Below are positions 18,746 through 45,098 of a stretch of 64,000 bases of DNA, piece by piece (the first letter of the stretch is position 1; each line of letters opens with the position of its first letter). The notes beneath the pieces were generated by a model, which was not told the origin of the DNA, ran no database searches, and saw only the letters and a list, made by a program, of their open reading frames with translations. Source of the stretch: Desulfatibacillum sp. (lineage in GTDB: Bacteria > Desulfobacterota > Desulfobacteria > Desulfobacterales > SpSt-501); the NCBI GenBank assembly GCA_020725555.1, contig DYEU01000010.1:74980-138979 (forward strand). The letters are read 5' to 3'. Both the position numbers and the translations under genes were made by a program.

Positions 18746-18761
18746 AGCAAACAGGATGCCA
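18746..18761 (-). promoter_or_regulatory. sigma54 (-24/-12) promoter for the amidohydrolase-fold gene
   Basis: Minus strand TGGCATCCTGTTTGCT. GG and GC are exactly 12 nt apart. About 60 nt upstream of ATG 18676. Confidence 0.65.
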
Positions 18762-19004
18762 CAAAACATTCAAGGACGGCCGCTCCCCCCGCCCGGCGCG
18801 GCCCTCCCGGGCGGAAGCCGCCTCACCTTGCGGGGAAACGTCGCCGCCGGAGGTCATCCCGCCGGGAAAATGAACCGCCGCCGCGGCCGGGCGGCAAGGG
18901 CCGCGGTGCGGGAGCGAAGGGCCGCAAACGGCATGGCGGCGGCGAATTTCCCCGCCGGGAATCGAAAAGCGGTTCGATACAAAACCGTTTCAGGCCCCGA
19001 ACTT

Positions 19005-19020
19005 GTTGCATATCTGCATG
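19005..19020. promoter_or_regulatory. 16-bp palindrome copy 1 (candidate enhancer/UAS)
   Basis: GTTGCA-TATC-TGCATG. Confidence 0.55.
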
Positions 19021-19078
19021 GATTAGCAATAACGACCGAGAATATCAAATTTTTTTTGTTTGACTGCCCCGGCGCCAA

Positions 19079-19094
19079 GGTGCAAATATGCAGC
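19079..19094. promoter_or_regulatory. 16-bp palindrome copy 2 (candidate UAS)
   Basis: GGTGCA-AATA-TGCAGC. Confidence 0.55.
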
Positions 19095-19207
19095 AGACGC
19101 CTCTTGGCGCGCCGCCGACGGGCGGCCACAAGACAAAAAATCAAAGAAATTTCAATGGGTATCTGCAAGATCGGCTTCATGCGCGGGAAAGGGCGCGGCA
19201 CAAAGAA

Positions 19208-19223
19208 GCTGCATATTTGCAAC
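19208..19223. promoter_or_regulatory. 16-bp palindrome copy 3 (candidate UAS)
   Basis: GCTGCA-TATT-TGCAAC. A degenerate half-site, AATGGG-TATC-TGCAAG, lies at 19154-19169. Confidence 0.55.
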
Positions 19224-19359
19224 ACGATGAAGCGGGGCCGGCGCGCGCCAAGACTTCGTCTCCCTCTCCTACCCGAACTTCTCGCGAAAGCCGTGCCGTG
19301 CCTGCCGGCACCGGCTGAGGATTTTCGGGGCGGCCGCAGGCGGCGACCGCAGGGGCGGT

Positions 19360-19375
19360 TGGCGCGATAGTTGCT
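19360..19375 (+). promoter_or_regulatory. sigma54 (-24/-12) promoter of the BMC shell/core operon
   Basis: TGGCGCGATAGTTGCT with canonical GG-N10-GC spacing. About 110 nt upstream of ATG 19485. Confidence 0.7.
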
Positions 19376-19484: not shown

Positions 19485-20177
19485 ATGGGCAAACTGGTCA
19501 TCTCCATGGCGGACATCGAGGATGCCGTGCGCAAGGGCGAGCGCACCCTGAGGATCCGCTCCGGCGAATGCATCGTGACCCCGGGCGCCCGGGACAGGGC
19601 CCGCGAAATGGGGATCACCCTCCTCGAGGAGGGATCCGCAACCGCCGCCGCGGAGGCGACCGCGGCGGAGACGCCGGCCCTCCCCGAAACGGCGGAGGCG
19701 CTCGTCCGCGAGGTCTGCCGCCACATCGGCGAGCACCTGCCCGCGGGAGTCGAAGCGGGAGAGCTCGAGCGGCTCGTGCGCGGCGCGGTCGCCGCGCGCC
19801 TGGCGGGGCAGCGCGCCGCCGCCGCGGCCGTTTCGCCCGCGGCGCGCGGGGTCTTCTTCGTTCGCGGGTCGCGGCTGCTCGAGGATGCCTCCGGGCCCGT
19901 TCCGGTCGAGGAAAAGGCCATCGTCGCCGAGGCCTTGGGGGGCGGCGAGGAGATGCGGCTCGCCGGCGGGTTCATGGAGTGGGAAAAGGCCTCCTTCCGG
20001 CGCGTCGTCGAATCCGCGGAAATCGCGGTCGTGCTGGAGGGCGAGCTGCGGCTCGCCGTGGGGGAAACGCGGATCGAGGCGCGGCCCGGCGACATGCTCT
20101 ACTTCGCGCCGGGGACCGAGCTGGTCTACGAAGCCGAGGGGCGCGTGCGCCTCGCCTGCGTCAACGGCATCCGGTAA
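19485..20177 (+). CDS. eutQ: EutQ-like cupin protein (BMC-associated; EutQ has acetate kinase activity)
   Basis: N-terminus [46 protein letters not shown] parallels the E. coli EutQ N-terminus (recalled). C-terminal cupin [33 protein letters not shown] 7 nt upstream of ATG 19485. Confidence 0.8.
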
Positions 20178-20197
20178 CCTGAGGAGGCCCGGGCGGC

Positions 20198-21199
20198 GTG
20201 GACATTCTGGAGCGCTGTGTCGAAGCCTGTCGCCGCCACCCCGGGACGGTCGCCTTCCCCGACTGCCTGGACGAGCGGGTGATCGCCGCCGCCGGGCGGC
20301 TCAAGCGCGAAGGGCTTGCCGAGCCCGTTCTCGTCCAGTCCCCCTTCGCCGTGCGCGGGAAACTCCGCGAGGCGCGGGTGCGGGGCACCGGCTTCGTGGT
20401 GGTCGACCCGGGAAGCCCCACGGTTGCGGAAAGGAACGCGCGGCAGTTCAGCGAAATCCGGCGGGAGGCCGGAAAACCCGTGCACGCCGAGGAGGCCGAG
20501 GAGGTCGCGCGCGACCCGCTCACGGCGGCGGCGATGATGGTGCGGCGCGGCGAGGTCGAGGTCGGGGTCGCCGGCAACCTCTCCACCACGGCGGCGGTGC
20601 TGCGCACCGGGCTGCGGGTGCTGCCCCGGAAGCCCGGCATCCGCACCATTTCGAGTTTCTTCCTCATGGTCTCGCCGGACTACGAGCGCCGCTTCATCTT
20701 CGCCGACTGCGCCGTCGTCCCCGAGCCGACGGAGGAGGCGCTCGCCGACATCGCCCTCGCTTCCGCCGACCAGGCGCGCAGCCTCCTGGGCGAGGAGCCG
20801 CGCGTCGCGCTGCTCTCCTTTTCCACCAAGGGCAGCGCCCGGCACCCCCGGGCGGAGATGGTGCGGCGGGCGGTGGAGCTCGTGCGGGAGCGCGCCCCCG
20901 ATTTGAAGGTGGACGGGGAGCTGCAGTTCGACGCCGCCGTGGACCCGGAGGTCGCGGCCCTGAAGGCCCCCGGCAGCGTGCTCGCCGGCCAGGCGAATGT
21001 GGTCATTTTCCCCTCGCTCGAGGCGGGCAACATCGGCTACAAGATGGTGCAACGGCTGGCCGGGTACTCCGCCATCGGCCCCTTCCTTCAGGGGTTCGCC
21101 GGCGGCTGGCACGATCTCTCCCGCGGCTGCAGCGCCGAGGACATTTTTCAGGTGGCCGTGCTGGCGATCTGCATGAAGCGCGGCAACCTGCTCGCATGA
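20198..21199 (+). CDS. pta: phosphate acetyltransferase (PTA_PTB type)
   Basis: 333 aa. [12 protein letters not shown]...[11 protein letters not shown]...[17 protein letters not shown], typical of short Pta. GTG start. Confidence 0.9.
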
Positions 21200-21231
21200 A
21201 CCCGAACGAAACCCTACGCCAGGAGGAATCC

Positions 21232-21510
21232 GTGGACGCACTGGGCATGATCGAAACCAAGGGGCTCGTCGCCCTGATCGAGGCGGCCGACGCCATGGTG
21301 AAGGCCGCGCGGGTCCAGCTCGTCGCCTACAAACAGATCGGGGCGGGCTACGTCACGGCGCTCGTTCGCGGCGACGTCGCCGCCTGCAAGGCGGCCACCG
21401 ACGCCGGGGCGGCGGCCGCGCGCCGCGTGGGCGAGGTGATCGCCGTCCATGTCATCCCGCGCCCCCACGGCGATCTGGACGCCGTCTTTCCGATCCAGGT
21501 GCGGGAATAA
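21232..21510 (+). CDS. BMC-H shell protein (PduA/EutM type)
   Basis: [25 protein letters not shown]...[19 protein letters not shown] 5 nt upstream of GTG 21232. An alternative ATG at 21196 overlaps the pta stop. Confidence 0.9.
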
Positions 21511-21540
21511 CGGGGGGCGCCGGGCAGGCGGGGCTTGGCC

Positions 21541-22878
21541 ATGAACCGGGAGCGCATCCTGCGGCAGATCCGCGATGCCGGCGTCGTCGGCCAGGGCGGG
21601 GCGGGGTTTCCCGCCCACGTCAAGTTCGCCGCCCCGGTGGAGACCGTCATCGCCAACGGCTGCGAGTGCGAGCCGCTGCTCTTCTCCGACCAGGTGCTGA
21701 TGCAGCGCCACGCGGAGGAGATCGTCGAGGCGCTCGAGGCCGTCATGGCCGCGGTCGGTGCGCGCCGCGGGATCATCGCCATCAAGGAAAAATACCGGAC
21801 GGCCGGGGAGCGCTTCGAGCGCCTGCTCGGAGGAAAACCGATCGAGCTTGCGCGCCTTGAGAACTTCTACCCCGCGGGCGACGAGCACGTCCTCGTCCAC
21901 GAACTGCTCGGCCGGGCGATCCCGCCTCTCGGGCTGCCCAAGGATGTCGGCGCCGTCGTCTCCAACGTGGGGACCCTTCATGCCGTGCACCGGGCGATGG
22001 CGGGCCTGCCGGTGACCCACCGCCTGGTCACCGTCACCGGCGAGGTGCGGCGCCCCGCCGTGCTCGAGGTGCCGATCGGCACGCCGGTCGAGGAATGCAT
22101 CGCGGCCTGCGGCGGGCCCGCCGTCGCCGACCCCGTGCTGGTCCTCGGCGGGCCGATGATGGGCCGCTTCGTGGACGGGCCGGAGGCGATGCGCCGGGAG
22201 GTCGTCACCAAGACCACGGGGGGGGTGCTGCTGCTGCCGCGCGGCCACTACCTCCACCGCATGGCCACCCTGTCGGTCCGCGAGATGGAGAAGCAGGCCG
22301 CGGCGGCCTGCATCCAGTGCCGCTACTGCACCGACCTCTGCCCGCGGCACAACATCGGCCACAGCTTCGAGACCCACCGCGTGATGCGGGCCTTCGGCGG
22401 CGGGGTCGCCACGGCGCCGGGAACCCTGCAGGCGTTCCTGTGCAGCGAATGCGGCGTGTGCGAGCTCTTCGCCTGCCCCATGCGGCTTTCGCCGCGGCGG
22501 ATCAACGCCCTGTTCAAGGCCCGCTTCCGCGAGCGGCAGATCGCCTACGAGGGGCCGCGCGAGGTGGTGCCCGCCCAGTCCCTGCTGAACCGGCACCGCA
22601 AGATCCCGGTTTCGCGCCTGGCGATCAAGCTGGACATCCAGAAATACCTCGCCATTCACCCCGCCGAGGGGGAGCGTCTTTCCCCGGCGCAAGTGACGAT
22701 CCCCCTGCAGCAGCATGCGGGGGCCCCGGCCGTCGCCTGCGTGCGACCGGGCGAGCGGGTGGAGGAGGGAGCGGCAATCGGCGAAATCCCCGAGGGCAAG
22801 CTGGGCGCCCGGGTGCACGCCTCCATCGCCGGGGAGGTGATCCGGGTGGACAACGCCGTCACGATCCGGAGGGGCTGA
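21541..22878 (+). CDS. pduS: PduS-like flavin/Fe-S oxidoreductase (RnfC/Nqo1-like)
   Basis: AGVVGQGGAGFPAHVKF nucleotide/flavin motif. Two ferredoxin-type Cys clusters: CIQCRYCTDLCP and CSECGVCELFACP. Confidence 0.85.
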   Translation: MNRERILRQIRDAGVVGQGGAGFPAHVKFAAPVETVIANGCECEPLLFSDQVLMQRHAEEIVEALEAVMAAVGARRGIIAIKEKYRTAGERFERLLGGKPIELARLENFYPAGDEHVLVHELLGRAIPPLGLPKDVGAVVSNVGTLHAVHRAMAGLPVTHRLVTVTGEVRRPAVLEVPIGTPVEECIAACGGPAVADPVLVLGGPMMGRFVDGPEAMRREVVTKTTGGVLLLPRGHYLHRMATLSVREMEKQAAAACIQCRYCTDLCPRHNIGHSFETHRVMRAFGGGVATAPGTLQAFLCSECGVCELFACPMRLSPRRINALFKARFRERQIAYEGPREVVPAQSLLNRHRKIPVSRLAIKLDIQKYLAIHPAEGERLSPAQVTIPLQQHAGAPAVACVRPGERVEEGAAIGEIPEGKLGARVHASIAGEVIRVDNAVTIRRG

Positions 22879-22881
22879 ACC

Positions 22882-23442
22882 GTGGAACCCGAGCTCCATG
22901 CCGTGGGAATGATCGAGTTCAACAGCATCGCCGGGGGCATCGAGGGGGCCGACGCCATGGTGAAGGCCGCGATCGTCGAGCCCTTCCTGATGAAGACCAT
23001 CTGCCCGGGGAAATTCGTCGTCGCCGTGCACGGGGAGGTGGCCGACGTCCAGGCCGCGATCGACGCCGGGCTCGCCCTCGGCAAGGACGCCGTCATCGAT
23101 CACTTCGTCATCCCCCACATCCGCATGGACGTGATCCGCGCGATCGGGGCAAGCCTGACGGACCATCGCGGGGGGGCCGCCCTGGGGGTGATCGAAACCT
23201 TCTCCGCCGCCTCCTGCGTCGTCGCGGCCGATGCGGCGGCCAAAGCCGCCGATGTGGATGTCCTGGACGTGCGGCTCGCCATGGGCCTCGGGGGCAAGGC
23301 GTTCTGCTTGCTCGCCGGGGACGTGGGGGCGGTGGAACGCGCCGTGGAGGCGGGGGCGGAGCGGGCCTCCGCCGAGGGCCTGCTGGTCCGCCGGGTGGTG
23401 ATCCCCGGGGTGGCCGCGGAGGTGCTGCGCCATATCCTCTAG
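22882..23442 (+). CDS. pduT: tandem-domain BMC-T shell protein, PduT-like
   Basis: Two BMC domains ([24 protein letters not shown]; ALGVIETFSAASCVVAADAAAKAA). KTICPGKF matches the Cys-containing Fe-S site motif of Salmonella PduT (recalled). Confidence 0.85.
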   Translation: MEPELHAVGMIEFNSIAGGIEGADAMVKAAIVEPFLMKTICPGKFVVAVHGEVADVQAAIDAGLALGKDAVIDHFVIPHIRMDVIRAIGASLTDHRGGAALGVIETFSAASCVVAADAAAKAADVDVLDVRLAMGLGGKAFCLLAGDVGAVERAVEAGAERASAEGLLVRRVVIPGVAAEVLRHIL

Positions 23443-23494
23443 CCGCGGGGCGCGGCCTGCGAGGCGATTTTTCGTCAAGGAAAGGAAGACACCC

Positions 23495-23839
23495 ATGGCC
23501 GAATCGGAAGCGTTGGGATTCGTCGAAACCCGGGGCCTGGTGGCCGCCATCGAGGCCGCCGACGCGATGGCCAAGGCGGCCCGCGTGCGCATCAAGACCG
23601 TCGGCAACGCCGATGCGGCCCTCATCAGCGTGATCTGCGAGGGCGACATCGCCGCCTGCGCGGCCGCCGTGGACGCGGGGAAAGCCGCCGCGGCCCGCGT
23701 GGGGGACCTGGTCGGCAGCAACCTGATCGCCCGCCCCGACGCGGACACCGCGCGGCTGGTCGAAGAGCGGATCGATGTCCTCATGCCCCCGGCCGGGGAG
23801 GCGGCGAAGGGCACCCCCCGGCCCAAGGGCAGAAAATAA
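23495..23839 (+). CDS. BMC-H shell protein with a ~25-aa basic C-terminal extension
   Basis: [24 protein letters not shown]...[15 protein letters not shown]. Tail [17 protein letters not shown]. Confidence 0.85.
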
Positions 23840-23915
23840 CCCTGCCCGCCCCCCGACGTGGGGGCGGCAACGCCCATGCGGCCCACCGGGGGCCGCCAAG
23901 GAGAGCGAGGAGACC

Positions 23916-24194
23916 ATGATGGACGCACTGGGAATGATCGAAACCAAGGGGTTGACCGCACTGATCGAGGCCTCCGACGCGATGGTCAAGGCCGCGCGCG
24001 TGACCCTCGTCGGCTACGAGCGGATCGGCGGCGGCTACGTGACCGCGCTCGTCCGCGGCGATGTCGCCGCCTGCAAGGCGGCCACCGACGCCGGGGCGGC
24101 CGCGGCGCGCCGCGTCGGGGAAGTGATCGCCGTCCACGTCATCCCGCGGCCGCACGGGGACCTCGAGAAGGTCTTCCCGATCGCCATGAAGTAG
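23916..24194 (+). CDS. BMC-H shell protein (paralogue of 21232..21510)
   Basis: [28 protein letters not shown] 44-aa stretch is identical to the first BMC-H. Confidence 0.9.
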
Positions 24195-24305
24195 CCGCGC
24201 TTGCGGAAGCCCCCCGCCGCGCGATCGGCCGCGGCGGCCCCTGCGCTTCGGGGTCCCCTCTTCCGGGGCACGGGGGGGGACTGGCTTCCAGAGAGGAGAC
24301 CGGCC

Positions 24306-24611
24306 ATGGAACTCGGCAAGGTCATCGGCCAGGTGGTGGCCACGGTGCGCGACCCGGGGCTGCCGAACCTGACCTTTCTGCTCGTGCACATCGTCGACGA
24401 GCACGGCAACGTCACGCTGCCCAGCCAGGTCGCCGCCGACCCGATCGGCGCCGGCGAGGGCGAGATGGTCCTCCTCGTGCGCGGCAGCTCCGCACGGCTC
24501 ATCCTGGAGGGAAAAGCGCCGATCGATCTCAGCGTGATCGGCATCGTCGACCAGATTTCCTCCGGCAAGAAGGCGATCTACGCCAAGTACGCGCCGGAGA
24601 CACGCAAGTAA
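24306..24611 (+). CDS. eutN: BMC-P pentameric vertex protein (EutN/PduN/CcmL family)
   Basis: [19 protein letters not shown]...[20 protein letters not shown]. About 101 aa. Confidence 0.85.
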
Positions 24612-24629
24612 CCGCCCGGGGGAGACTCC

Positions 24630-26051
24630 ATGCAGATCCAGCGTGAGCAAATCGAATCGATCGTCCGCGAAGTCCTCCAGCAGCTCACCGCCCGCATGCC
24701 GCAATCGCCGGCCGCGTCGGCGGAGGGCGACTGGGGGGTGTTCGAGCGGCTCGAGGATGCGGTCTCGGCCGCGGACCGGGCCTTCCGGCGCCTGGACACG
24801 GTCGCCCTGCGCGAGCGCGTCGTCGAGGCGATCCGGCGCGCGGCGCGGGCGAACGCCCGGCGGCTGGCGGAGATGGCCGTGGACGAAACCGGCATGGGAA
24901 GGATCGAGGACAAGGTGAAGAAGATCCTGCTCGTCGCCGACCGCACCCCGGGTCCGGAGATTCTCTTCCCGAGCGCCATGTCCGGGGATGCGGGCTTGAC
25001 GCTCGTCGAAAACGCCCCCTGGGGCGTCATCGCCTCCGTCACCCCCTCCACGAACCCCGCGGCCACGGTCATCAACAACGGGATCAGCATGCTCTCCGGC
25101 GGAAACGCCGTCGTCTTCGCCCCGCACCCGGGCGCCAAGCGGGTCTCCCAGGAGGCGATCCGGATCCTCAACAAGGCGATCCACGAGGAGACGGGCCTCG
25201 TCCACCTGATGACCTGTGTGCGCGAGCCGAGCATCGAAATCGCCCAGAAGCTCTTCACCTACCCCGGGATCCACCTGCTGGTCGTGACCGGCGGGGAGGC
25301 CGTGGTCGAGGCCGCGCGCAAGACGACCAACAAGCGCCTGATCGCCGCCGGCGCCGGAAACCCGCCGGTGGTGGTCGACGAGACCGCGGACCTGAAGCGC
25401 GCGGCGCGCAGCATTTACGAGGGGGCCTCCTTCGACAACAACATCGTCTGCTGCGACGAAAAGGAGATCATCGCCGTCGAGGCCATCGCCGATGCCCTCA
25501 AGCGCGAGCTCGCCGCCTGCGGGGCGGTCGAGATCTCCCGCGAGCAGGCCGAGGCCGTCGCCCGCGCGACGCTCCTCGACTACCCCGGCCCCAAGGCGCG
25601 CCCGAACCCCCGCTGGGTCGGGCGCGACGCCGCCGAGCTCGCCAAGGCGGCCGGTTTCAGCGTCCCCGACGCCTGCCGCCTGCTGTTCGTCGACGTGGGC
25701 CGCGACGTGGACCACGTCTACGCGCGCGTCGAGCAGATGATGCCGCTCGTCCCTCTCCTGCGGGCGGCGGATTTCGAGCAGGCGCTCGAATGGGCGCTCC
25801 TTCTCGAGCGCGACCGCCGGCACACCGCGGCCCTGCACTCGCGCGACATCGACCACATGGACACCATGGCGAAGCGCGTGAACACGAGCCTCTTCGTCAA
25901 GAACGGCCCCTGCATCGCGGGCCTCGGCGCCGGGGGGGAGGGTTGGACCTCGATGACGATCTCGACCCCGACCGGCGAGGGCGTCACCAACGCCCGCACC
26001 TTCGTGCGGCTCAGGCGCTGCACCCTGGTCGGAAGCTTCCGGATCGTCTGA
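24630..26051 (+). CDS. CoA-acylating aldehyde dehydrogenase (PduP/EutE type) with N-terminal encapsulation-peptide-like helix
   Basis: 473 aa. Catalytic Cys region [11 protein letters not shown]-terminus [23 protein letters not shown], then a Pro/Ser/Ala linker, as in PduP. Confidence 0.85.
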
Positions 26052-26110
26052 CCGCGCCCGGGGCAAGGCCCGCCGCACCCGCCGCAAGGCGTTCTGAAGC
26101 GAGGTGCCCC

Positions 26111-37055: not shown

Positions 37056-37808
37056 TCAGGCGGCGCCCTGCCGGCCGCGGCGGGCGGAGCGGGAGAGGGT
37101 GACGCAGACGTGCTCGTCGGGCTTTTCCGGGGGGCCGGGCCGGCGGGCATCGGCCCCGTCGGCGAAGTAAAAGCGCCGGATCTGCTTCTCCTGGGCCGCA
37201 AACGACCAGTGGACGTCGCGCCAGATGTAGGCCGCGAGTTCCCGGTCGCCCTTCTCGAAGGCCTCGATCAGGCGCTCGTGGTCGCGGCAGTTGCTCAGCT
37301 CCCATTCGCGGATGTAGCCGCGGCGGGGGAAATCGTAGAGGCGCCGCTTCATCGGCGCGATGATGCGCTTGATCATCTCGTTGTGCGACAGGTCGAGAAA
37401 CACGCGGTGAAAGAGGATGTTTCCCTCGTAGTAGCCCTGGAAATCGCTCCGCTTGATCATCACGCGCAGCTCGCGGTTGAGCGCCTTCATGCGCTCAAGA
37501 TGGAGCGGCTGTACGTTGTCGAAGACGGCGAGGATGACGGTCGTCTCGAGCGCGCCCACGACCTCGTAGATGTTGCGGATGTCCTCGAGGGTCAGCCGGT
37601 TGACGAAGACCCCCCGGCGCGGGCAGATGGTGACGAAGCCCTCGGTGTCGAGCTGCAGGAGGGCGTCGCGCAGGGGGGTCTTGCTGATCCCCAGCTCCCG
37701 GCTGATCGCGTTCAGGTTCACCGCCGCCCCGGGGATGAGCTTCCCCCGGGTGAGCTCCTGGCGCAGGTAATCGTAGACCTGTTCGCGAAGCGAGCGCTGC
37801 TCGAGCAT
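37056..37808 (-). CDS. GntR-family (FadR/FCD subfamily) transcriptional regulator
   Basis: N-terminal wHTH LNAISRELGISKTPLRDALLQLDTEGFV and an all-helical C-domain. AAGGAGG upstream of ATG 37808. Confidence 0.85.
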   Translation of the reverse strand: MLEQRSLREQVYDYLRQELTRGKLIPGAAVNLNAISRELGISKTPLRDALLQLDTEGFVTICPRRGVFVNRLTLEDIRNIYEVVGALETTVILAVFDNVQPLHLERMKALNRELRVMIKRSDFQGYYEGNILFHRVFLDLSHNEMIKRIIAPMKRRLYDFPRRGYIREWELSNCRDHERLIEAFEKGDRELAAYIWRDVHWSFAAQEKQIRRFYFADGADARRPGPPEKPDEHVCVTLSRSARRGRQGAA

Positions 37809-37837: not shown

Positions 37838-39205
37838 TCATTTCTCGACCACGGCGTCGCAAAGGGCGAGGTTGCGGTCGATCACCTCGAGCCCGAAGTC
37901 GAGCTCCTCCTTGGTGATGATGAGCGGCGGGGTGATCATGATCACCGAGGCGCCCCCGGCCATGATGTAGACCCCCTCCTCCATGCACTTGGCGAGAAAG
38001 GTCATCTTGGCCGTCGCCGGCCGCGGCGGCTCCATCAGCGCCTCGTGGATGGGCTCCTTGGTCTTGCGGTTCTTCACGATCTCGATGCCGCAGAAGAGCC
38101 CCTTGCCGCGGACCTCGCCCACGCAGGGGTGCTTGTCCTGGATTTCCCTCAACCGCTCCATGAGGTAGGCGCCCGTCTGGGCCGCCCGCTCGATGAGGCG
38201 GTCCTCGCGGTAGGCCTCGATCGCCGCCACCCCCGCCGCCATGGCGAGCGCGTGCCCGGAGTAGGTGTGGCCGTGGAGGTAAGGCATGGTTTCGAACTTT
38301 TCCGCGATCCAGGGCCGCACGGTCGTCGCCCCGAGCGGTATGGAGCCGGAGTTGATGCCCTTGGCCATGGTGATGATGTCGGGCACGACGTTCCAGTGGT
38401 CCATCCCGAACCATTTGCCCGTGCGGCCGAAGCCGGTCATGACCTCGTCGGCGATCAGGACCATCTCGTACTTGTCGCAGATCGCGCGCACCATCGGCCA
38501 ATATTCGTCCGGCGGGACGATGATCCCGCCCGCGCCGAAGATCGGCTCGCCGATGATCCCCGCCACCCGCCGCGCCCCGCCCTCGAGCCGAACCACCTCC
38601 TCCACGTGCTTGGCGCACTGGATGTCGCAGGAGGGGTAGGTCGCCCCGAAGCTGCAGCGGTAGCAGTAGGGGGGAAGGATGTGGATCGCCCCCGGAACGG
38701 CGGGCTCGGCACACCAGTTGCGGTAGTCGGCCGAGAGCGCCATGGCCCCCATGGTCGAGCCGTGGTAGGAGCGCCAGCGCGAGAGGATTTTCTGCTTGCC
38801 GGTGACCCAGCGGGCGATCTTCGCCGCGCCTTCGTTGGCCTCCGTCCCGCCGGTCGAAAAGAAGGACTTCTTGAGGTCCCCGGGGGTCACCTCGGCGAGG
38901 AGCTTCCCCAGCCGCGCCTTGGGCTCGGTCGCCCACTGGGAGTTGACGCTGGGGAGGGTGGCGGCCTGGCGGGCGATGGCGGCGTTGACGCGATCGTCGC
39001 AGTGCCCCAGGTTGGTGAACACGAATTGGGAGGTGAAATCGAGGACCTTTTTGCCCTCGGGGTTTTTCACCCAGCACCCCTTGCCCTCGACGGCGACGAA
39101 GGGCTTGAGCCCCTTCTGCGCCGTCCAGGGCGTCATCACGTACTCGGCCTCGTAGCGCCGGATGGTCTCGGCGTCCAAGCGTTCGCTGCGGTTTGCTTCC
39201 GACAT
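37838..39205 (-). CDS. class-III (omega) aminotransferase, candidate taurine:pyruvate aminotransferase
   Basis: FFSTGGTEANEGAAKIAR, LIADEVMTGFGRTGKWFG, and the PLP-Lys region DIITMAKGINSG. Substrate is inferred from context only. Confidence 0.8.
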   Translation of the reverse strand: MSEANRSERLDAETIRRYEAEYVMTPWTAQKGLKPFVAVEGKGCWVKNPEGKKVLDFTSQFVFTNLGHCDDRVNAAIARQAATLPSVNSQWATEPKARLGKLLAEVTPGDLKKSFFSTGGTEANEGAAKIARWVTGKQKILSRWRSYHGSTMGAMALSADYRNWCAEPAVPGAIHILPPYCYRCSFGATYPSCDIQCAKHVEEVVRLEGGARRVAGIIGEPIFGAGGIIVPPDEYWPMVRAICDKYEMVLIADEVMTGFGRTGKWFGMDHWNVVPDIITMAKGINSGSIPLGATTVRPWIAEKFETMPYLHGHTYSGHALAMAAGVAAIEAYREDRLIERAAQTGAYLMERLREIQDKHPCVGEVRGKGLFCGIEIVKNRKTKEPIHEALMEPPRPATAKMTFLAKCMEEGVYIMAGGASVIMITPPLIITKEELDFGLEVIDRNLALCDAVVEK

Positions 39206-39242
39206 GGCATCCTCCTTGCGCCGCATCCCCGCGGCGCGGCGT

Positions 39243-40397
39243 TCAGTAATTGCGCTCCAGCATGCCGACCACGTCCGCTTCGGTGACGGCCCGCGGGTTG
39301 TTGCCGATCAGCCGCGTCGCCCCCAGCGCCGCACGGGCGATCGCCGGGATGTCCTGGCGGCTCACCCCGTAGTCGCCCAGGCGCGTGGAGATCCCGAGGT
39401 CGGCGAGCAGCGCCCGCACCGCGGCCACGGCGCGCCGCGCGGCCTCGAGCGCGGGGAGCCCGGCCACAGGCTCGCCGAAGGCCTCGGCGATCCGCGCGAA
39501 CTTGTGCGGCACGGCGATCGCGTTGAACTCCATCACCCAGGGCAGCAGGAAGGCCGTGAGCAGGCCGTGGGGAAGGTGGTATTTGCCCCCGATTGCCAGC
39601 GCGAGCGCATGGTCGAGGCCGTTTTGGGTGTTCGAGAAGGCCATGCCTGCCAGGCAGGAGGCGTAGAGCATGTTCTCGCGCGCCGCGACGTTGCGCCCGT
39701 TGGCAAACGCCGGGCGCAGGTTGCCCGCGACAAGCCGGATCGCCTGCAGGTTGAGCGTGTCGGTGAACACGGTCGCCCGCACGCCGACATAGGATTCGAT
39801 CGCGTGCACCAGGGCGTCCATCCCCGTGATGGCCGTGACCCGCTGGGGCAGCTCGAGGGTGAGCAGCGGGTCGAGGATCGCCGCCCGGGCGAAGAGGTGC
39901 CGGCTCACGATCCCTTTCTTCACCTGGTTGTGGGTGTCGGAAAGCACGCTGATCGAGGTCATTTCGCTTCCCGTGCCGGCCGTCGTGGGAATCAAGATCA
40001 GCGGCACGCCCGGCCGGGGAACGAGCTCCATCCCGAAATAGGCCTCGATCGGCCCCTCGTTGGTGATCATCACCGCGGCGACCTTGGCGAGGTCAAGCGA
40101 GCTTCCGCCCCCCACCCCCACGACCACCTCGGGCCGGGCGAACGCGGCGGCCTGGACGCAGGCCCGGGCGGCCTCCAGGCTCGGGTCGGACTCGACCTCG
40201 GTGAAGGCCGTGACCGCAAGGCCCGCCTTGTCGAGCACCGTTTTCACCGCCTCGAGCACCCCCGCCTTGACGATCCCGGGGTCGGTGACGATCAGCACGC
40301 GGCTTCCCTCCAGCCGCCGGACTTCCTCGCCGAGGGTCTCCACGCTTCCCGCCCCGAAGCGGATCCGCGGCATCGTCTCGAAGCACTGTGGCGCCAT
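39243..40397 (-). CDS. iron-containing (group III) alcohol dehydrogenase, candidate sulfoacetaldehyde reductase
   Basis: GVGGGSSLDLAK NAD motif. Metal-site histidines in GMDALVHAIESY and LDHALALAIGGKYHLPHG. Substrate is inferred from context. Confidence 0.8.
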   Translation of the reverse strand: MAPQCFETMPRIRFGAGSVETLGEEVRRLEGSRVLIVTDPGIVKAGVLEAVKTVLDKAGLAVTAFTEVESDPSLEAARACVQAAAFARPEVVVGVGGGSSLDLAKVAAVMITNEGPIEAYFGMELVPRPGVPLILIPTTAGTGSEMTSISVLSDTHNQVKKGIVSRHLFARAAILDPLLTLELPQRVTAITGMDALVHAIESYVGVRATVFTDTLNLQAIRLVAGNLRPAFANGRNVAARENMLYASCLAGMAFSNTQNGLDHALALAIGGKYHLPHGLLTAFLLPWVMEFNAIAVPHKFARIAEAFGEPVAGLPALEAARRAVAAVRALLADLGISTRLGDYGVSRQDIPAIARAALGATRLIGNNPRAVTEADVVGMLERNY

Positions 40398-40483: not shown

Positions 40484-41242
40484 TTAGAGCGTCAACTCGC
40501 AGCACTCGGTGATCGTGTGCCTGAGCTTCAGAAACTCCATGTCCGTGTGCTCCCGCGGCCGCGGGAGGTCCACCTCCCAGACCCGGTCCATGCGGCCGGG
40601 GAGCTTCCCCTTCAGGGTGACGATGCGGTCGCCCAAAAAGATCGCCTCGTCGATGTTGTTCGTGACGAAGAGGACGGTGCGCTTTTCGGTCTCCCAGATG
40701 CGGGCCGTCTCCTTCTCCATGAAATAGCGCGTCTGCGCGTCGAGCTGCCCGAAGGGCTCGTCGAGCAGCATGACTTGCGGGTTGTTGGCGTAGGCGCGGG
40801 CGATCCCCACGCGCTGCTTCATGCCCCCGCTCAGCTGGTGCGGGTAGTGCTTCTCGAAGCCGCGCAGGCCGACGAGGTCGATGTAGTGCTGGGCGATGCG
40901 CCGCCGCTCCTCCCGCGGCACCCCGCGAAGCCGGGGACCGAGCTCCACGTTGCCGAGGACCGTTTTCCAGGGAAAGAGCATGTAGCTCTGGAACACGAGC
41001 CCGCGGTCGGGGCCGGGGCCGCTGACCGGCCGGCCGTCGAGGAGCACCTCGCCCTCGCTCGGCGTCTCCAGCCCCGCGATGATGCGCAGGAGCGTGCTCT
41101 TGCCCGATTGCCCCGGTCCCAGGATGACGAGGAACTCGTTGTCGCGCACGAAGAGCGAGATGTCCTCGAGCACGTGCACCCGCTGCTTGCCCTTCTGGAT
41201 GAAGACCTTCGCGATGTGGCGGCACTCGATCTTGTGCGTCAT
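40484..41242 (-). CDS. ABC transporter ATP-binding protein (NitT/TauT family) with Asn in place of the H-loop His
   Basis: Walker A GPGQSGKST, signature LSGGMKQR, Walker B VMLLDEPFGQLD, but the H-loop reads LFVTNNIDEA. Confidence 0.85.
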   Translation of the reverse strand: MTHKIECRHIAKVFIQKGKQRVHVLEDISLFVRDNEFLVILGPGQSGKSTLLRIIAGLETPSEGEVLLDGRPVSGPGPDRGLVFQSYMLFPWKTVLGNVELGPRLRGVPREERRRIAQHYIDLVGLRGFEKHYPHQLSGGMKQRVGIARAYANNPQVMLLDEPFGQLDAQTRYFMEKETARIWETEKRTVLFVTNNIDEAIFLGDRIVTLKGKLPGRMDRVWEVDLPRPREHTDMEFLKLRHTITECCELTL

Positions 41243-41261: not shown

Positions 41262-42143
41262 TCACAGGTCGCGGATGTCCCGGCGCCACGGGCAGAGGAG
41301 CTTCTCCAGCCCGGCGATCAGAAGCGAGGAGAGCCAGGCGACGAGGGCGATCATCACCATGCCGCCGATGACGAGCGCGGCGTCGGTGAACTTCATGCCC
41401 TGCACGATGATGAAGCCCAGGCCCGAGCGCGAGGCGACGAGCTCGGCGGCCAGAACACAGGTCCAGGCGAGCGAGAGCGAAATCTGCAGCCCCGCGAAGA
41501 TGGCGGGAAACGAGGCCGGGAAGCTCACCTGCAGGATCTCGTTCCAGCGATTGCCGCCGAGCACCTTGACCACGTCGTAGAGCTCGGGGTCGATCAGCCG
41601 GATGCCGTTGTAGGCGTTCAGCAGGCAGGGGACGAAGGTCCCGATGATGATGATGAAGATCTTCGACTCCTCGCCCACGCCGAACCAGAGGATGGCGATG
41701 GAGACCCAGGCGATCGGCGGCATGGGCTTGAAGATGTCGAAGACGGGCTTGACGAGGGCGTTCACGTAGGGGTTGAGGGCCATGAAGAGCCCGAGCGGGA
41801 TGGCCACCGCGGAGGCGAGGACGAAGCCGATGGCGATCCTCTGGGCGCTCGCCGCGATGTGCCCCCAAAGGGTGAGGCCGGCCAGCGTATCGGTCAGCAG
41901 CCCGCGGAAGCGGACCACGACCTCCCAGGGGGTGCACAGCCCGCCCTTGAAGACGCCGCTTGCGGCGACTTCGTGCCAGAGGGTGAGGAAGGCCGCCGCC
42001 GAGACGACATGCAGGACATACTCGTTGGTGATCACCCGGCGCAGCGTGAGGGGCCGCCGCTCGCGGACGCTCTTCTGCACCTCGTTGGCGATCGCGCGGT
42101 CCTGCCGCCCCAGGCGCTGGATGCCCTCTTCCATCTCGGCCAT
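41262..42143 (-). CDS. ABC transporter permease (NitT/TauT family)
   Basis: 293 aa, about 6 TM segments. Adjacent to a second permease and the ATPases. Confidence 0.8.
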   Translation of the reverse strand: MAEMEEGIQRLGRQDRAIANEVQKSVRERRPLTLRRVITNEYVLHVVSAAAFLTLWHEVAASGVFKGGLCTPWEVVVRFRGLLTDTLAGLTLWGHIAASAQRIAIGFVLASAVAIPLGLFMALNPYVNALVKPVFDIFKPMPPIAWVSIAILWFGVGEESKIFIIIIGTFVPCLLNAYNGIRLIDPELYDVVKVLGGNRWNEILQVSFPASFPAIFAGLQISLSLAWTCVLAAELVASRSGLGFIIVQGMKFTDAALVIGGMVMIALVAWLSSLLIAGLEKLLCPWRRDIRDL

Positions 42144-42146
42144 CGC

Positions 42147-42941
42147 TTACCTCCGGATGCCGGCCAGCAGCCGCTTTTCGACCTCGTCGATCGCCAGCCC
42201 GATGAGCGCGCCCATGACCCCGACCGACACCATGCCGAGCACCACCATGTCCGGCAGCGCGAGCCTGCGCCCCATCGTGATCAGGTAGCCCAGGCCCTGG
42301 TCGGCGGCGAGCAGCTCGGCCGCGACCAGGTTGGTCCAGCAGCTGGCGAGCGCGATCTGCAGCGCCCCGAAGACCATGGGCAGGGCGGAGGGGACGCAGA
42401 GCGTCTTGAAAATCTGCCAGTCCGAGGCGCCGTAGGTGCGCGCCATCTGGATCAGCGTGGGGTTGGTCATGCGCACGCCGACGAAGGCGTTGATCACGCA
42501 GGGGACGACTCCCCCCAGCCAGATGATGAAGACCTTGCCCCAGAGCCCGATCCCGAACCAGAAGACGGTGAGCGGGATCCAGGCGATGGGCGGGATCGGC
42601 CGGATCAGCTCGAAGATCGGCCGGGCGATCCCGCGCACCACCCCGAACCAGCCCATGAACAGGCCCAGGGGGATCCCGATGCCGAGGGCGAGGAGGTAGC
42701 CGAGAAAGGCCTCCTGCATGCTGACCCAGGCATGGACGAAAATCGTCGCCCCGTCGGGGTTGGGGTTGGTGAGCTTGTCGACGAAGAGGGCCCCCACGTC
42801 GCTCGGGGCGGCCAGCATGGTCGCCGGGACGATCCCCGCGCGCACGATGAGCTCCCAGGCGCCGAAAAAGCAAACGACGCTGAAAAACGGGAGAAGAATC
42901 AGCCCGAGCGGCTTGCGAACCTTGACTTCCTCGTAGGCCAT
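42147..42941 (-). CDS. ABC transporter permease (NitT/TauT family)
   Basis: 264 aa, polytopic. Paralogous to 41262..42143. Confidence 0.8.
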   Translation of the reverse strand: MAYEEVKVRKPLGLILLPFFSVVCFFGAWELIVRAGIVPATMLAAPSDVGALFVDKLTNPNPDGATIFVHAWVSMQEAFLGYLLALGIGIPLGLFMGWFGVVRGIARPIFELIRPIPPIAWIPLTVFWFGIGLWGKVFIIWLGGVVPCVINAFVGVRMTNPTLIQMARTYGASDWQIFKTLCVPSALPMVFGALQIALASCWTNLVAAELLAADQGLGYLITMGRRLALPDMVVLGMVSVGVMGALIGLAIDEVEKRLLAGIRR

Positions 42942-43016
42942 CCCGTGGGCCCCCCTCGGATCCGGACGTGCGGAACCTCCCGGCGGGGGGGGAGCCCCCC
43001 GCCGGGGCTTGCGGCG

Positions 43017-44105
43017 TTACTTCAGCTCGTCGGTCGGGATCGGGGTCTTGACGAGTTTCAGGAACTTGTCGGTCACGTAGGCCGAGTCCTTGACCTTCTC
43101 GAACTCCTCGGGCTTGAAGCGGCCCTGGGCGGTGAAGAACTCGGCGATCTGGGTCTGCCACTTCTGGGCCGTGCTCATGCCCTTCGCGGCGTCAAAGAGC
43201 TTGAGCTGCTCCTCGAGGTTCCAGACCGGGTGGTTGTCGATGTCGAGCTTGGCCATCTCCGCCGAGATGTCCATGCCGCCCCAGTCCTTCATGAACTTCT
43301 GGTAGAGCTTCACGACCTCGGGGTGGCTGCCGTGCTTGCGCTGGAAGTTGACGCCGCGCAGGTAGACGCGCAGGAACTTGGCCACGATCTCGGGGTTCTT
43401 GTCGCAGAACTCCTTCTCCCCGATCAGGACGATGGGCAGGGCGCGCCCGGTCGAGCGCACATCGGCCACTTTCTTGTAGCCCTTGGCTTCCGCCGCGTAG
43501 GTGTGCGGCGCCCAAAGCGCGACGATGTCGCCGATCCCCTTTTCGAAGGCGGCGACGGCCGAGGCCTGGTCCATCTGCTTGATGACGACGTCGCTGTCCT
43601 TGAGGCCGAGGACCCCGAGCCACATGCTCAGGGCATAATGCGCCGAGGAGACGGTGGTGACGAGCACCGTCTTGCCCTTGACCGTCTCGGGCGAGCCGTA
43701 GACCTCCGGGAACTGCTTGTTGAAGCCCTTCACCTGGGCGATCGGGCTGTCCGGCCGCACGTAGACGTTGTTGGTGATCGACTCGTCGTTTCCGAGGGCG
43801 ATCATGTAGGCGCCGTAGCGCAGGGCGCCCACGACCATGGGCACGCCCCCCAGCCCGCCCAGCACCCACTGCTTGGCGGGCAGGGCCTCAAGCTGCGCCA
43901 TCCCGGAATCGAAGTAGGTGATCTCCAAGTCCAGCCCTTCCTGCTTGTCCCAGCCTTTCTGCTTGGCCAGCCAGGGGAAGAAGGTCTCGTGTTCCGGCTG
44001 CCAGCTCATCTTGAGCTTGAAGGGCGCCTGGGCCTGAGCCGCAGGCAGGGAGAACCCGAAGAGAACGATCACCGCCAGGACCACACAAAGCGCCATCCGT
44101 TTCAT
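43017..44105 (-). CDS. ABC transporter substrate-binding protein (NMT1/TauA-like), candidate taurine/sulfonate receptor
   Basis: Start ATG 44105 (AAAGGAGG upstream). Signal peptide MKRMALCVVLAVIVLFGFSLPAAQAQA. Periplasmic-binding fold. Confidence 0.75.
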   Translation of the reverse strand: MKRMALCVVLAVIVLFGFSLPAAQAQAPFKLKMSWQPEHETFFPWLAKQKGWDKQEGLDLEITYFDSGMAQLEALPAKQWVLGGLGGVPMVVGALRYGAYMIALGNDESITNNVYVRPDSPIAQVKGFNKQFPEVYGSPETVKGKTVLVTTVSSAHYALSMWLGVLGLKDSDVVIKQMDQASAVAAFEKGIGDIVALWAPHTYAAEAKGYKKVADVRSTGRALPIVLIGEKEFCDKNPEIVAKFLRVYLRGVNFQRKHGSHPEVVKLYQKFMKDWGGMDISAEMAKLDIDNHPVWNLEEQLKLFDAAKGMSTAQKWQTQIAEFFTAQGRFKPEEFEKVKDSAYVTDKFLKLVKTPIPTDELK

Positions 44106-44244
44106 CGGTCTGCCTCCTTTCGGAAAACCGGGGGGTGGGAAGGAATCCTTCGCCTGGAAAACCAACCTGCTGCCGAGGGCCGTTCACCTCCTTCCTTGCG
44201 GTTGCGGGTTCCACCCGCGGCGCCCGGGGGCGCCGCATCTCGCC

Positions 44245-44994
44245 TCACCACCAGCGGATCAGCTCCGTCACCTGCTTGCGGATTTGGACGAAGGCCGGGT
44301 CGATCAGGCTGCGCGGCCGCGGGAGATCGACCCGCACCTCGGCCTTGATCCGGGTCGGTTTGTTGCTGAGCACGAGGATCCGCTCGGCCACGTAGACGGC
44401 CTCCTCGATGTTGTGGGTGACGAAAATGACGGTCGCCTTCAGGGTCTGCCACAACTTGACGAGCTCGTCCTCCAGGTAGTAGCGCAGCTTGACGTCGAGC
44501 TGGCCGTAGGGCTCGTCCATCAGCAGGAGATCGGGGTCCACGGCGAAGGCGCGCGCCACGGTGATGCGCTGCACCATGCTCGCCGAGACCTGGTTCGGGT
44601 AGAGATGCTGGGTCTCGGCCAGACCCACGAGCCCGAGCATGTAGTCCACGCGCTCGCGGATCTTGTCCGTGGGGAAGCGCTTGAGCTCCATCCCGTAGGC
44701 CACGTTCTCGCGCACCGTGCGCCAGGGGAGGCAGGTCGGCTCCTGGAAGACGAAGGAGATGTTGTGCACGCGGGGGTCGGCGACGCGGCCGTCGATGAAG
44801 ATGTCGCCCGCGCTCGTCGGGATCAGCTTGGAGAGGCAGTTGAGGAAGGTGGTCTTGCCGCAGCCGGTCGGCCCCACGATGGCCAGGAACTCCCCGCGGC
44901 CGACCTGGAAGGAGATGTCGTCGAGGACGAGCAGGTCGCCGAAGCGCTTGGTCAGGTTGCGCACATCGATCTTGACCGGGGCCGCAGGGGGCAT
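44245..44994 (-). CDS. ABC transporter ATP-binding protein (NitT/TauT family) with degenerate signature motif
   Basis: Walker A GPTGCGKTT, Walker B LLLMDEPYGQLD and H-loop FVTHNIEEA are intact, but the signature is VSASMVQR instead of LSGGxxQR. GAGGAG RBS before ATG 44994. Confidence 0.85.
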   Translation of the reverse strand: MPPAAPVKIDVRNLTKRFGDLLVLDDISFQVGRGEFLAIVGPTGCGKTTFLNCLSKLIPTSAGDIFIDGRVADPRVHNISFVFQEPTCLPWRTVRENVAYGMELKRFPTDKIRERVDYMLGLVGLAETQHLYPNQVSASMVQRITVARAFAVDPDLLLMDEPYGQLDVKLRYYLEDELVKLWQTLKATVIFVTHNIEEAVYVAERILVLSNKPTRIKAEVRVDLPRPRSLIDPAFVQIRKQVTELIRWW

Positions 44995-45066
44995 GCGCTG
45001 CGCTCCTCGCCCGGGGGCCGCGCCGCCCGGGCCGGAAGGGTCCATGAGAGCTTGCCGGGGCCGGAA

Positions 45067-45098
45067 CTGATGTATCAGATATCAGATGGGCGTGTCAA
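45067..45098 (-). promoter_or_regulatory. candidate promoter/operator of the ABC-ADH-aminotransferase-gntR-ackA unit
   Basis: Minus strand has a perfect -35 TTGACA (45098-45093) and only a weak -10. The spacer and -10 region hold CTGAT-GT-ATCAG (inverted repeat) plus a tandem ATCAGAT ATCAGAT (45067-45088). Confidence 0.35.

Follow-up and report, generated by a model that had tools for sequence, protein, structure and literature searches.

The closest described relative of the locus treated here is the IslAB cluster of Bilophila wadsworthia 3.1.6, which encodes a PAS regulator, IslB, IslA, an acylating aldehyde dehydrogenase (ALDH), EutN-type proteins, a phosphotransacetylase (Pta), EutQ, a bacterial microcompartment (BMC)-domain protein, a PduT-like protein, a PduS/RnfC homologue and a 'hypothetical protein, predicted amidohydrolase' (Burrichter 2021, PMC8667426, Table 1). 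PduS and PduT have been discussed as a possible electron shuttle in this BMC, because no alcohol dehydrogenase (ADH) recycles NAD+ within the compartment (PMC8667426). The class was first defined as a glycyl radical enzyme (GRE)-associated microcompartment (GRM) of unknown function and was later tied to IslA (PMC13450708), and neighbourhoods of IseG with transporters of the TRAP type (tripartite ATP-independent periplasmic) and BMC proteins were shown in 2019 (Xing, PMC6453916). D. alaskensis G20 needs islR and the TRAP genes to use isethionate, and Bilophila has a second, separate cluster for taurine transport and conversion (Peck 2019, PMC6386719). Here we analyse a 64-kb stretch of DNA (the window; contig DYEU01000010.1 of assembly GCA_020725555.1) from an uncultured member of the Desulfobacterales with a GC content of roughly 70%, in which the DNA between about 16.5 and 45.1 kb is, with good probability, a three-module locus for the catabolism of isethionate and taurine, both of them C2 sulfonates.

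The locus is a fresh example of the Bilophila-type system and not a new kind of system; the lineage is new, and the layout is unusually consolidated. A preliminary description of the window had counted the amidohydrolase-like gene, the PduS/PduT pair, the dedicated regulator and the double uptake by TRAP and ATP-binding cassette (ABC) transporters as extras outside the described system. These novelties were already known, as the amidohydrolase, PduS/PduT and the PAS regulator all lie in the Bilophila IslAB cluster (PMC8667426), the link of TRAP uptake to BMC genes had been reported (PMC6453916) and islR is genetically required (PMC6386719), and the published picture includes the separate Bilophila cluster for taurine (PMC6386719).

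Because the GC content of the window is very high (61-75%, with the locus similar to its flanks), raw lists of open reading frames (ORFs) were swamped with spurious frames, and genes were called by third-position GC (GC3) and labelled from Pfam and NCBIfam scans; E-values of the listed genes run from 1e-20 to 0, and chance is not an issue. The gene units of the preliminary description were all recovered in this way, each gene no more than a few codons off the position first given: a plus-strand BMC operon (19485-26938) in which every listed gene was found, a GRE and its activase on the minus strand (26974-30465) on which that operon converges, dctPQM (31164-34301) followed by a PAS/sigma54 activator (34400-35806), and a minus-strand unit from 35827 with an ABC importer, an iron-dependent ADH (Fe-ADH), a class-III aminotransferase, GntR and AckA. 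The last of these runs to 45045 and comprises nine tightly packed genes with gaps of 3-95 bp. The term 'island' is another matter. Nothing marks the region as mobile, since it contains no tRNA and no flanking direct repeats, the flanks lack an integrase and the GC content is flank-like, and the mobile-island reading was ruled out. An Rfam scan of 15-53 kb gave no match.

Homology, active-site residues, synteny and promoter architecture lend the central interpretation good support. Computation directly gives the gene content, an active site of IslA type, the pattern of promoters and sites and the conserved gene order; from these we infer the substrate of each enzyme and transporter, the encapsulation and the link between regulator and sites. 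In the route that we propose, the ABC importer of the taurine operon would take up taurine, a Toa-type aminotransferase would convert it to sulfoacetaldehyde, and a SarD-like reductase would yield isethionate. IslB would activate IslA, which would split isethionate into sulfite and acetaldehyde inside a shell made of three BMC-H proteins, one PduT-like BMC-T protein and one BMC-P protein. ALDH would then form acetyl-CoA from acetaldehyde, Pta would form acetyl-phosphate and recycle CoA, and AckA would produce acetate and ATP, with PduS and PduT as candidates for moving electrons across the shell. Sulfite would be reduced elsewhere in the genome or exported by an adjacent TauE-family permease. 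A complete route from taurine to acetate had been claimed before, and there is indeed a candidate gene for each step, with the SarD, TauA and isethionate-TRAP roles assigned by family-level similarity and neighbourhood rather than by equivalog-level matches.

The GRE is accompanied by its activase:

27970-30465, minus strand: predicted isethionate sulfite-lyase, a GRE of IslA/IseG type (PFL-like and Gly_radical domains; matches in the Protein Data Bank, PDB)
26974-27948, minus strand: putative GRE-activating radical-SAM enzyme of IslB type (TIGR02494, 351 bits; Radical_SAM and ferredoxin-like domains)

Against all PDB sequences, the three best matches of the GRE were IseG of D. vulgaris (5YMR, 1424 bits), IslA of Bilophila (7KQ3, 1356 bits) and HpsG, a sulfolyase of 2,3-dihydroxypropane-1-sulfonate (DHPS) (6LON, 1237 bits). 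CutC, the glycerol and propanediol dehydratases and HypD reached at most 564 bits, and the isethionate-lyase reading thus survives the check for a grouping with any of these. In HMMER alignments the enzyme shares 73.5% of its residues with IseG, 68.0% with IslA and 63.6-63.8% with HpsG; IseG and IslA are 73.1% identical to one another, and each is 60.6-63.4% identical to HpsG. The catalytic and substrate-binding residues of IslA (Arg189, Gln193, Arg678, Trp374, Cys468, Glu470, Val680, Phe682 and Gly805; Dawson 2021, PMC8473560; review PMC13450708) are all nine kept in the window enzyme, as R190, Q194, R679, W375, C469, E471, V681, F683 and G806, with the glycyl-radical G806 and the C469-T-E471 loop aligning with IslA G805 and C468/E470. 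The Phe682 position holds Phe in IslA and the window GRE and Ile in HpsG and in three HpsG-like enzymes among the loci that we compared (L157, L161, L163), and at the 149 positions where IseG and IslA agree and differ from HpsG, the window GRE sides 96:26 with the isethionate lyases. A neighbour-joining tree of 106 sequences, computed without bootstrap and rooted on HpsG, places it inside a 102-member clade with IseG and IslA, and the three HpsG-like enzymes outside. The window GRE is accordingly classed as IslA-type, and isethionate cleavage is its predicted activity.

The operon that converges on islAB supplies a shell and its probable cargo:

19485-20177, plus strand: EutQ-like cupin (Pfam EutQ/Cupin; NCBIfam EutQ full-length, 70.9 bits, sub-threshold against a cut-off of 193)
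20198-21199, plus strand: Pta-type phosphotransacetylase (PF01515, 7.9e-107; NF007233, 355 bits, cut-off 310)
21235-21510, plus strand: BMC-H shell protein 1 (PF00936, 1.4e-28)
21535-22878, plus strand: PduS/RnfC-like flavo-FeS protein (Complex1_51K, SLBB, Fer4_17 and RnfC_N domains)
22882-23442, plus strand: PduT-like tandem-domain BMC-T protein (two BMC domains, 1.7e-44; TIGR02526, 122 bits, below the cut-off of 250)
23495-23839, plus strand: BMC-H shell protein 2, with a basic C-terminal tail (PF00936, 1.8e-20)
23916-24194, plus strand: BMC-H shell protein 3 (PF00936, 9.2e-30)
24306-24611, plus strand: BMC-P (EutN/CcmL) vertex protein (PF03319, 5.4e-26)
24630-26051, plus strand: CoA-acylating ALDH (NF011927, 637 bits, cut-off 403)
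26108-26938, plus strand: EutJ-type actin-like ATPase (NF011660, 305 bits, cut-off 182)

The shell set, which lies less than 6 kb from IslAB, thus consists of three BMC-H proteins, one tandem BMC-T and one EutN-type BMC-P. The genes match the Bilophila IslAB cluster item by item (ALDH, EutN, Pta, EutQ, BMC, PduT-like, PduS-like, amidohydrolase and PAS regulator), and although the PduT-like and EutQ-like proteins score below their NCBIfam cut-offs, their domain architectures still match the Bilophila set, as does that of the PduS-like protein, which is the same as reported for Bilophila 00648. On gene content, the window BMC with IslAB corresponds to the known 'GRM-guf' IslAB microcompartment. 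The PduT-like protein carries Cys41 within 'TICPGK', at what we take to be the cluster-ligand position of PduT. At the N-terminus of the ALDH, an amphipathic helix is followed by a Pro/Ala linker, and by resemblance the helix is likely an encapsulation peptide. The genes for BMC-H 1 and 3 are 84% identical as DNA (21233-21495 versus 23920-24182), which points to a fairly recent duplication inside the operon.

A further line of support is the promoter architecture, which ties the isethionate units together and sets them apart from the taurine operon. Its elements are as follows:

34400-35806, plus strand: PAS/sigma54-AAA+/helix-turn-helix activator, IslR-like (Pfam PAS, Sigma54_activat, HTH_8)
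18746-18761, minus strand: sigma54-type promoter of the amidohydrolase-like gene, TGGCATCCTGTTTGCT, one mismatch, conserved in relatives
19360-19375, plus strand: sigma54-type promoter of the BMC operon, TGGCGCGATAGTTGCT
30560-30575, minus strand: sigma54-type promoter of islAB, AGGCACGCTCTTTGCT; the same site type lies upstream of islA in L002, L005 and L007
31016-31031, plus strand: sigma54-type promoter of dctPQM, TGGCGCGGTTGTTGCT
19007-19221, no strand: three TGCA-N4-TGCA sites (at 19007, 19081 and 19210), found by sequence search
30806-30837, no strand: two TGCA-N4-TGCA sites between islA and dctP, found by sequence search
45093-45098, minus strand: sigma70-like -35 box TTGACA, read from the sequence
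45067-45085, minus strand: inverted-repeat element CTGATATCTGATACATCAG, read from the sequence

A search of the whole 64-kb window for the -24/-12 consensus with at most one mismatch returned four sigma54-type sites where 0.98 were expected. All four fall in two long divergent intergenic regions, correctly oriented, 60-135 bp from a gene start and one per isl unit; that of dctPQM probably also drives the activator gene. L001-L010 have the same or almost the same BMC-operon promoter (TGGCGCGATAGTTGCW), though their proteins are only 50-90% identical. Five TGCA-N4-TGCA sites were found in the window against 0.36 expected, all within these two regions; related loci have them at corresponding positions, and they accompany sigma54-type sites in the distant isl loci of Desulfacinum, Desulfomicrobium, Desulfitobacterium and a metagenome-assembled genome (MAG) of the Sporomusaceae. 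These are candidate binding sites of the sigma54 activator. IslR-like regulators, 45-57% identical, stand beside IslAB in 31 of 40 fully flanked loci, across phyla, and that of Oleidesulfovibrio (D. alaskensis group; L067) is 51% identical to the window activator, which we read as a putative IslR orthologue controlling four transcription units. Such an activator would bind TGCA-N4-TGCA in the two intergenic regions and turn on the four sigma54 promoters, namely those of dctPQM, islAB, the ten-gene microcompartment operon and the amidohydrolase-like gene.

No sigma54 site was returned for the taurine operon by the same search. This nine-gene operon would instead be served by a sigma70-type promoter and a probable GntR operator. 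The element CTGATATCTGATACATCAG is retained in L081-L083, and in a variant form in L092, amid flanks that have diverged. We regard it as a candidate operator of the GntR/FCD protein that the operon itself encodes, which would then regulate the operon.

The putative isethionate importer is a TRAP transporter:

31164-32294, plus strand: TRAP DctP (Pfam DctP)
32361-32963, plus strand: TRAP DctQ (Pfam DctQ)
32985-34301, plus strand: TRAP DctM (Pfam DctM)

Isethionate would be its most economical substrate, because about 20 loci, from Desulfobacterales, Desulfacinum, Desulfomicrobium and Desulfovibrionaceae, have this TRAP lineage directly next to IslA and because dctPQM and islA share a divergent sigma54 control region. 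The adjacency extends to loci without taurine genes, and to one without a BMC (L012). An isethionate TRAP had been assumed from the start; its linkage to IslA by neighbourhood stands, but it belongs to a different lineage from the Desulfovibrio systems for which binding of isethionate by the binding protein was measured.

The third module is the taurine operon:

35827-37041, minus strand: acetate kinase AckA (PF00871, 3.1e-139; TIGR00016, 461 bits)
37056-37808, minus strand: GntR/FCD-family regulator (Pfam GntR and FCD)
37838-39226, minus strand: class-III aminotransferase of the Toa subfamily (NF004718, 478 bits, cut-off 472, next model 342)
39243-40388, minus strand: Fe-ADH, SarD-like (NF050025 SarD, 461.5 bits over the full length, cut-off 700)
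40484-41242, minus strand: ABC ATPase (Pfam)
41262-42143 and 42147-42941, minus strand: ABC permeases (Pfam)
43017-44165, minus strand: NMT1/SsuA-like binding protein (Pfam)
44245-45045, minus strand: second ABC ATPase (Pfam)

The aminotransferase had been taken for Tpa. It is not demonstrably Tpa and belongs in the Toa subfamily, since it and the taurine:2-oxoglutarate aminotransferase of Bifidobacterium kashiwanohense (BkToa; 519 bits, next model 311) both match NF004718 best, and its best PDB match is BkToa itself (6JIX, 300 bits); a Toa-type enzyme would therefore be the more likely agent of the taurine step. Many homologues of 63-86% identity are labelled 'taurine--2-oxoglutarate transaminase' by JGI. 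Trp34 and the Arg in 'DYRNW' of the window protein align with Trp21 and Arg156 of BkToa, reportedly its docked sulfonate contacts. A roseobacter aminotransferase (L095, 41% identical) was considered as a Tpa reference and proved uninformative, its neighbours being enolase-superfamily genes.

For the Fe-ADH, the earlier assignment to SarD is softened to 'SarD-like'; SarD is the best model (next 321 bits), but the score lies below the equivalog cut-off. From its neighbourhood, the enzyme is a putative sulfoacetaldehyde reductase, and SarD-like ADHs of 56-63% identity stand beside IslAB in L022, L025, L028, L030, L034, L037 and L061. In L034, an independent lineage, a PRK06062-type aminotransferase (same subfamily, 49% identity) and a SarD-like ADH together adjoin IslAB. 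The importer, which had been described as of NitT/TauT type, holds that designation at the family level but does not reach the cut-offs of the TauA/SsuA models, and we regard it as a putative taurine importer. The aminotransferase stays paired with the ABC importer even in L091, where IslA is absent.

Several observations weigh against parts of this interpretation. In the Desulfovibrio-type isl loci, tblastn did not detect the window DctP and found DctM at 25-28% identity, such that the transporters are not orthologous, and lactate or keto-acids are the ligands of the solved proteins closest to the window DctP. The window IslA lacks any BMC-locus-specific extension at its N-terminus. The aminotransferase shares about 38% identity with BkToa (a by-eye estimate from the alignment), the Fe-ADH falls short of the 700 bits set for SarD, and the binding protein resembles TauA only remotely (best PDB match TauA, 6SSY, E 4e-12, 49 bits) and reaches none of the relevant cut-offs (TIGR01729, 44.6 against 304; NF008553, 45.9 against 490; TIGR01728, 97.8 against 163.5). 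Neither Ald nor Gdh, which would regenerate the amino acceptor, is encoded in the 64-kb window, and dsr genes are missing from it too.

The last of these points bears on the physiological role. The biochemistry may be as described and yet be used to ferment taurine, with sulfite or thiosulfate exported, or to scavenge nitrogen and sulfur, rather than to respire sulfite, a possibility that we consider fairly unlikely. It draws on the dsr genes not found in the window, on published precedents for assimilatory Toa/TauF and IslAB clusters, and on two permeases of the TauE/SafE family, at 16902-17642 and 54242-55120. The first of them reads:

16902-17642, plus strand: TauE/SafE-family anion permease (Pfam TauE, 1.4e-22)

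Copies of it, 61-76% identical, occupy the same position in 13 related Desulfobacterales loci, and it is a candidate exporter of sulfite or sulfonate. A window of only 64 kb says little about missing dsr genes, however, and the nearest relatives belong to the Desulfobacterales/Desulfobacteraceae, groups that normally carry Dsr; the BMC and the dedicated AckA point to high-flux energy metabolism, as in Bilophila. The second permease (54242-55120, plus strand), about 9 kb from the locus and with a much stronger match (Pfam 3.3e-59), is preceded by a glycogen-synthase-like gene (52584-54188, minus strand).

Another alternative concerns the minus-strand operon. That this operon handles another small amine (homotaurine, hypotaurine, beta-alanine/GABA or an aminophosphonate) and sits beside the isethionate genes by chance would account for the distance of the aminotransferase from BkToa, for the sub-threshold scores of the ADH and the binding protein, for a GntR whose best model, also sub-threshold, is a phosphonate-associated regulator, and for L091, which has the aminotransferase and ABC importer with no IslA within 10 kb. 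We think it distinctly unlikely, as the AckA at the end of the operon serves acetyl-phosphate from the BMC and about six to nine species, at 63-96% identity, have the operon in the same place next to the isl genes; SarD-like ADHs recur beside IslAB in seven further loci and a second aminotransferase lineage does so in L034; the window aminotransferase and BkToa match NF004718 by a wide margin, and the best structural match of the binding protein is TauA. A taurine operon feeding the isethionate route remains our preferred interpretation.

It is highly improbable that the GRE is a DHPS sulfolyase like HpsG, or another hydroxy-sulfonate lyase, in a locus for C3 sulfonates: the HpsG equivalog model NF048011 gives it 1590 bits against a cut-off of 1000, and HpsG is 63.8% identical with the Arg/Gln/Arg sulfonate site in common, but the window enzyme is nearer to both characterised isethionate lyases, has Phe at the position where HpsG and its relatives have Ile and shows the 96:26 split, the downstream ALDH, Pta and AckA suit acetaldehyde and not hydroxyacetone, the Bilophila HpsG has no BMC association, and the model, judging from the high score of the window GRE alone, appears unable to separate IslA from HpsG. 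The HpsG specificity call from NF048011 was dropped, since residues and tree put the GRE with the characterised isethionate lyases.

The locus also encodes an amidohydrolase-like protein:

17750-18676, minus strand: PF04909 amidohydrolase-like TIM-barrel protein (Pfam Amidohydro_2, 3.6e-42)

The gene was correctly described as a degenerate amidohydrolase, but its position is just outside the region first delimited, which began at 18746. Published work lists the component and leaves its role unexplained. Of 102 distinct homologues, 97 have 'DFRFRP' in place of the strand-1 His-x-His, the strand-8 Asp has given way to another residue within '(Y/F)ASAHPF', and 'SHGGYPW' is conserved; the catalytic Asp is therefore lost and two conserved His are left. 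The nearest structure, 3IRS (the uncharacterised Bordetella protein BB4693), shares both traits, with HxH replaced and the strand-8 Asp missing, and a literature search on BB4693/3IRS found nothing. A search with this protein as query recovered 70 loci, of which nearly all held IslAB or an isl-BMC operon within 10 kb, and in three of them (Lawsonia, Mailhella) the gene adjoins HpsG-like GREs. The protein tracks IslA-type and HpsG-type GREs in Desulfobacterota and Firmicutes, with a BMC or none, and since both kinds of neighbourhood occur, it follows sulfite-releasing GREs regardless of BMC or carbonyl product. It is a conserved partner of C-S-cleaving GREs.

The invariant arginine pair (Arg-x-Arg) at the former metal site suggests anion binding. 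We offer, tentatively and as a doubtful proposal, that the protein may be an unrecognised dedicated component of sulfite-releasing GRE systems rather than a decayed relic, a metal-free anion-binding barrel acting on sulfite or sulfonate. It is tempting to speculate that it might split the aldehyde- or ketone-bisulfite adducts that the products of both GREs form spontaneously. The metal-dependent taurine-conjugate hydrolases of Bilophila (2026 preprints) were considered as an explanation and excluded, as those are secreted PF07969 proteins of about 101 kDa, whereas the protein linked to IslA belongs to PF04909, has about 308 aa and lacks metal ligands.

IslA reaches 94-95% identity in the nearest genomes, which are MAGs of uncultured Desulfobacterales, and no cultured organism with the full gene set was found among the loci compared. 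The full order (ABC importer, SarD-like ADH, aminotransferase, GntR and AckA; regulator and DctMQP; IslAB; BMC operon; amidohydrolase-like gene) recurs in about six to nine species-level MAGs of uncultured Desulfobacterales, whose proteins are 63-96% identical; six of them have the taurine operon together with the TRAP/regulator genes, and continuity with the BMC operon was pieced together from overlapping same-contig loci in four to five. Among the 40 IslA loci with both 10-kb flanks, the regulator is present in 31, the amidohydrolase-like gene in 20, BMC genes in 16-18, the window TRAP lineage in 12, a SarD-like ADH in 8 and the aminotransferase in only 5. The union of all modules at one site is thus a trait of the window clade and not the rule.

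Two further observations concern other genomes. On the chromosome of the cultured Halodesulfovibrio aestuarii DSM 17919 (L142, L048), an isl-type BMC operon with the amidohydrolase-like gene lies at about 1.93 Mb and IslAB at about 3.03 Mb, such that the BMC module and its signature enzyme can be unlinked. Short contigs binned with an alphaproteobacterial MAG labelled Hyphomicrobiales (JBLMXM01; L087, L110) carry taurine and BMC genes 81-84% identical to those of the window, and look like mis-binned Desulfobacterales rather than a transfer.

Beyond the amidohydrolase-like gene, the locus is bordered by the TauE/SafE-family permease and by one further gene, neither of which was mentioned in the preliminary description:

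16479-16877, plus strand: CMD/AhpD-like protein (Pfam CMD, 1.3e-20; AhpD core domain)

Copies of this CMD-family gene, 78-91% identical, adjoin the amidohydrolase-like gene in L096, L097, L099, L101, L103, L105, L130 and L158, and it is a conserved neighbour of the locus in the window clade. Farther to the left, a TAXI-type TRAP system (10736-14220, minus strand), composed of a fused 704-aa DctM-family permease and an NMT1_3 binding protein, is the third organic-anion uptake system within the window, and a 1369-aa ORF (5189-9298, minus strand) has a trypsin-like peptidase at residues 710-916 as its sole recognisable domain. On the right, the plus-strand stretch 45248-52605, divergent from the taurine operon, encodes an Opp/Dpp-type ABC system for peptides (SBP_bac_5 with two permeases and two ATPases) and after it an isoaspartyl dipeptidase and a peptidase C26/gamma-glutamyl hydrolase-like protein; the amidohydrolase of this flank (50600-51808) is that isoaspartyl dipeptidase (TIGR01975, 479 bits). 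The peptide-uptake operon is probably unrelated to sulfonate use, because it is kept beside the locus only in the closest relatives.

These findings extend the IslAB microcompartment from the gut bacterium Bilophila to a free-living uncultured clade of Desulfobacterales, and indicate that a single two-regulon locus can bring together uptake, the conversion of taurine, encapsulated cleavage of the C-S bond and the formation of acetate with a yield of ATP. Such a locus helps to annotate organosulfonate-driven sulfide production in sediments, soils and groundwater, and offers a compact gene set for engineering. What the window analysis adds is the consolidated locus in at least six MAGs, the Arg-x-Arg pseudo-metal site in the GRE-linked PF04909 protein, and a predicted outline, from sigma54 promoters and TGCA-N4-TGCA sites, of an IslR-type regulon. 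The regulon is a concrete testable lead, and the strictly conserved Arg-x-Arg pseudo-amidohydrolase is a second one beside it.

Set against known systems, the window most resembles the Bilophila IslAB locus (PMC6386719; PMC8667426), with which it shares an IslA-type GRE and activase, acylating ALDH, Pta, EutQ, BMC-H, BMC-P, PduT-like and PduS/RnfC-like proteins, the amidohydrolase-like protein, the PAS regulator and a BMC operon without an ADH. It differs in having the taurine-to-isethionate genes, a taurine-type ABC importer, AckA and TRAP fused to the BMC locus where Bilophila has two separately regulated clusters, in the presence of EutJ and three BMC-H genes and the absence of EutT-like and TIGR04076 proteins, in a Toa-type aminotransferase without a linked Ald gene, and in an environmental Desulfobacterales host of high GC content. 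The two-regulon layout nonetheless parallels the independent induction by taurine and isethionate reported for Bilophila (PMC8667426).

The IseGH/IslAB-TRAP-IslR clusters of D. vulgaris, D. piger, D. alaskensis G20 and Desulfitobacterium hafniense (PMC6453916, PMC6386719, PMC9888536) likewise place lyase and activase beside a TRAP transporter and a sigma54-type regulator (45-57% identity), with an amidohydrolase-like gene nearby (L020, L067), whereas the Desulfovibrio clusters are mostly without a BMC, have a TRAP of another lineage with fused DctQM and lack a taurine module. HpsGH of Bilophila (6LON) also contains a C-S-cleaving GRE and shares the CxE loop in addition to the sulfonate site, but HpsG makes hydroxyacetone. 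Finally, BkToa (6JIX), considered together with the sulfoacetaldehyde reductases TauF and SarD, belongs to the same subfamily (NF004718), and here too the aminotransferase is paired with a metal-dependent ADH that would make isethionate; the Bifidobacterium pair serves nitrogen assimilation and its isethionate is excreted, whereas in the window the product would feed IslA.

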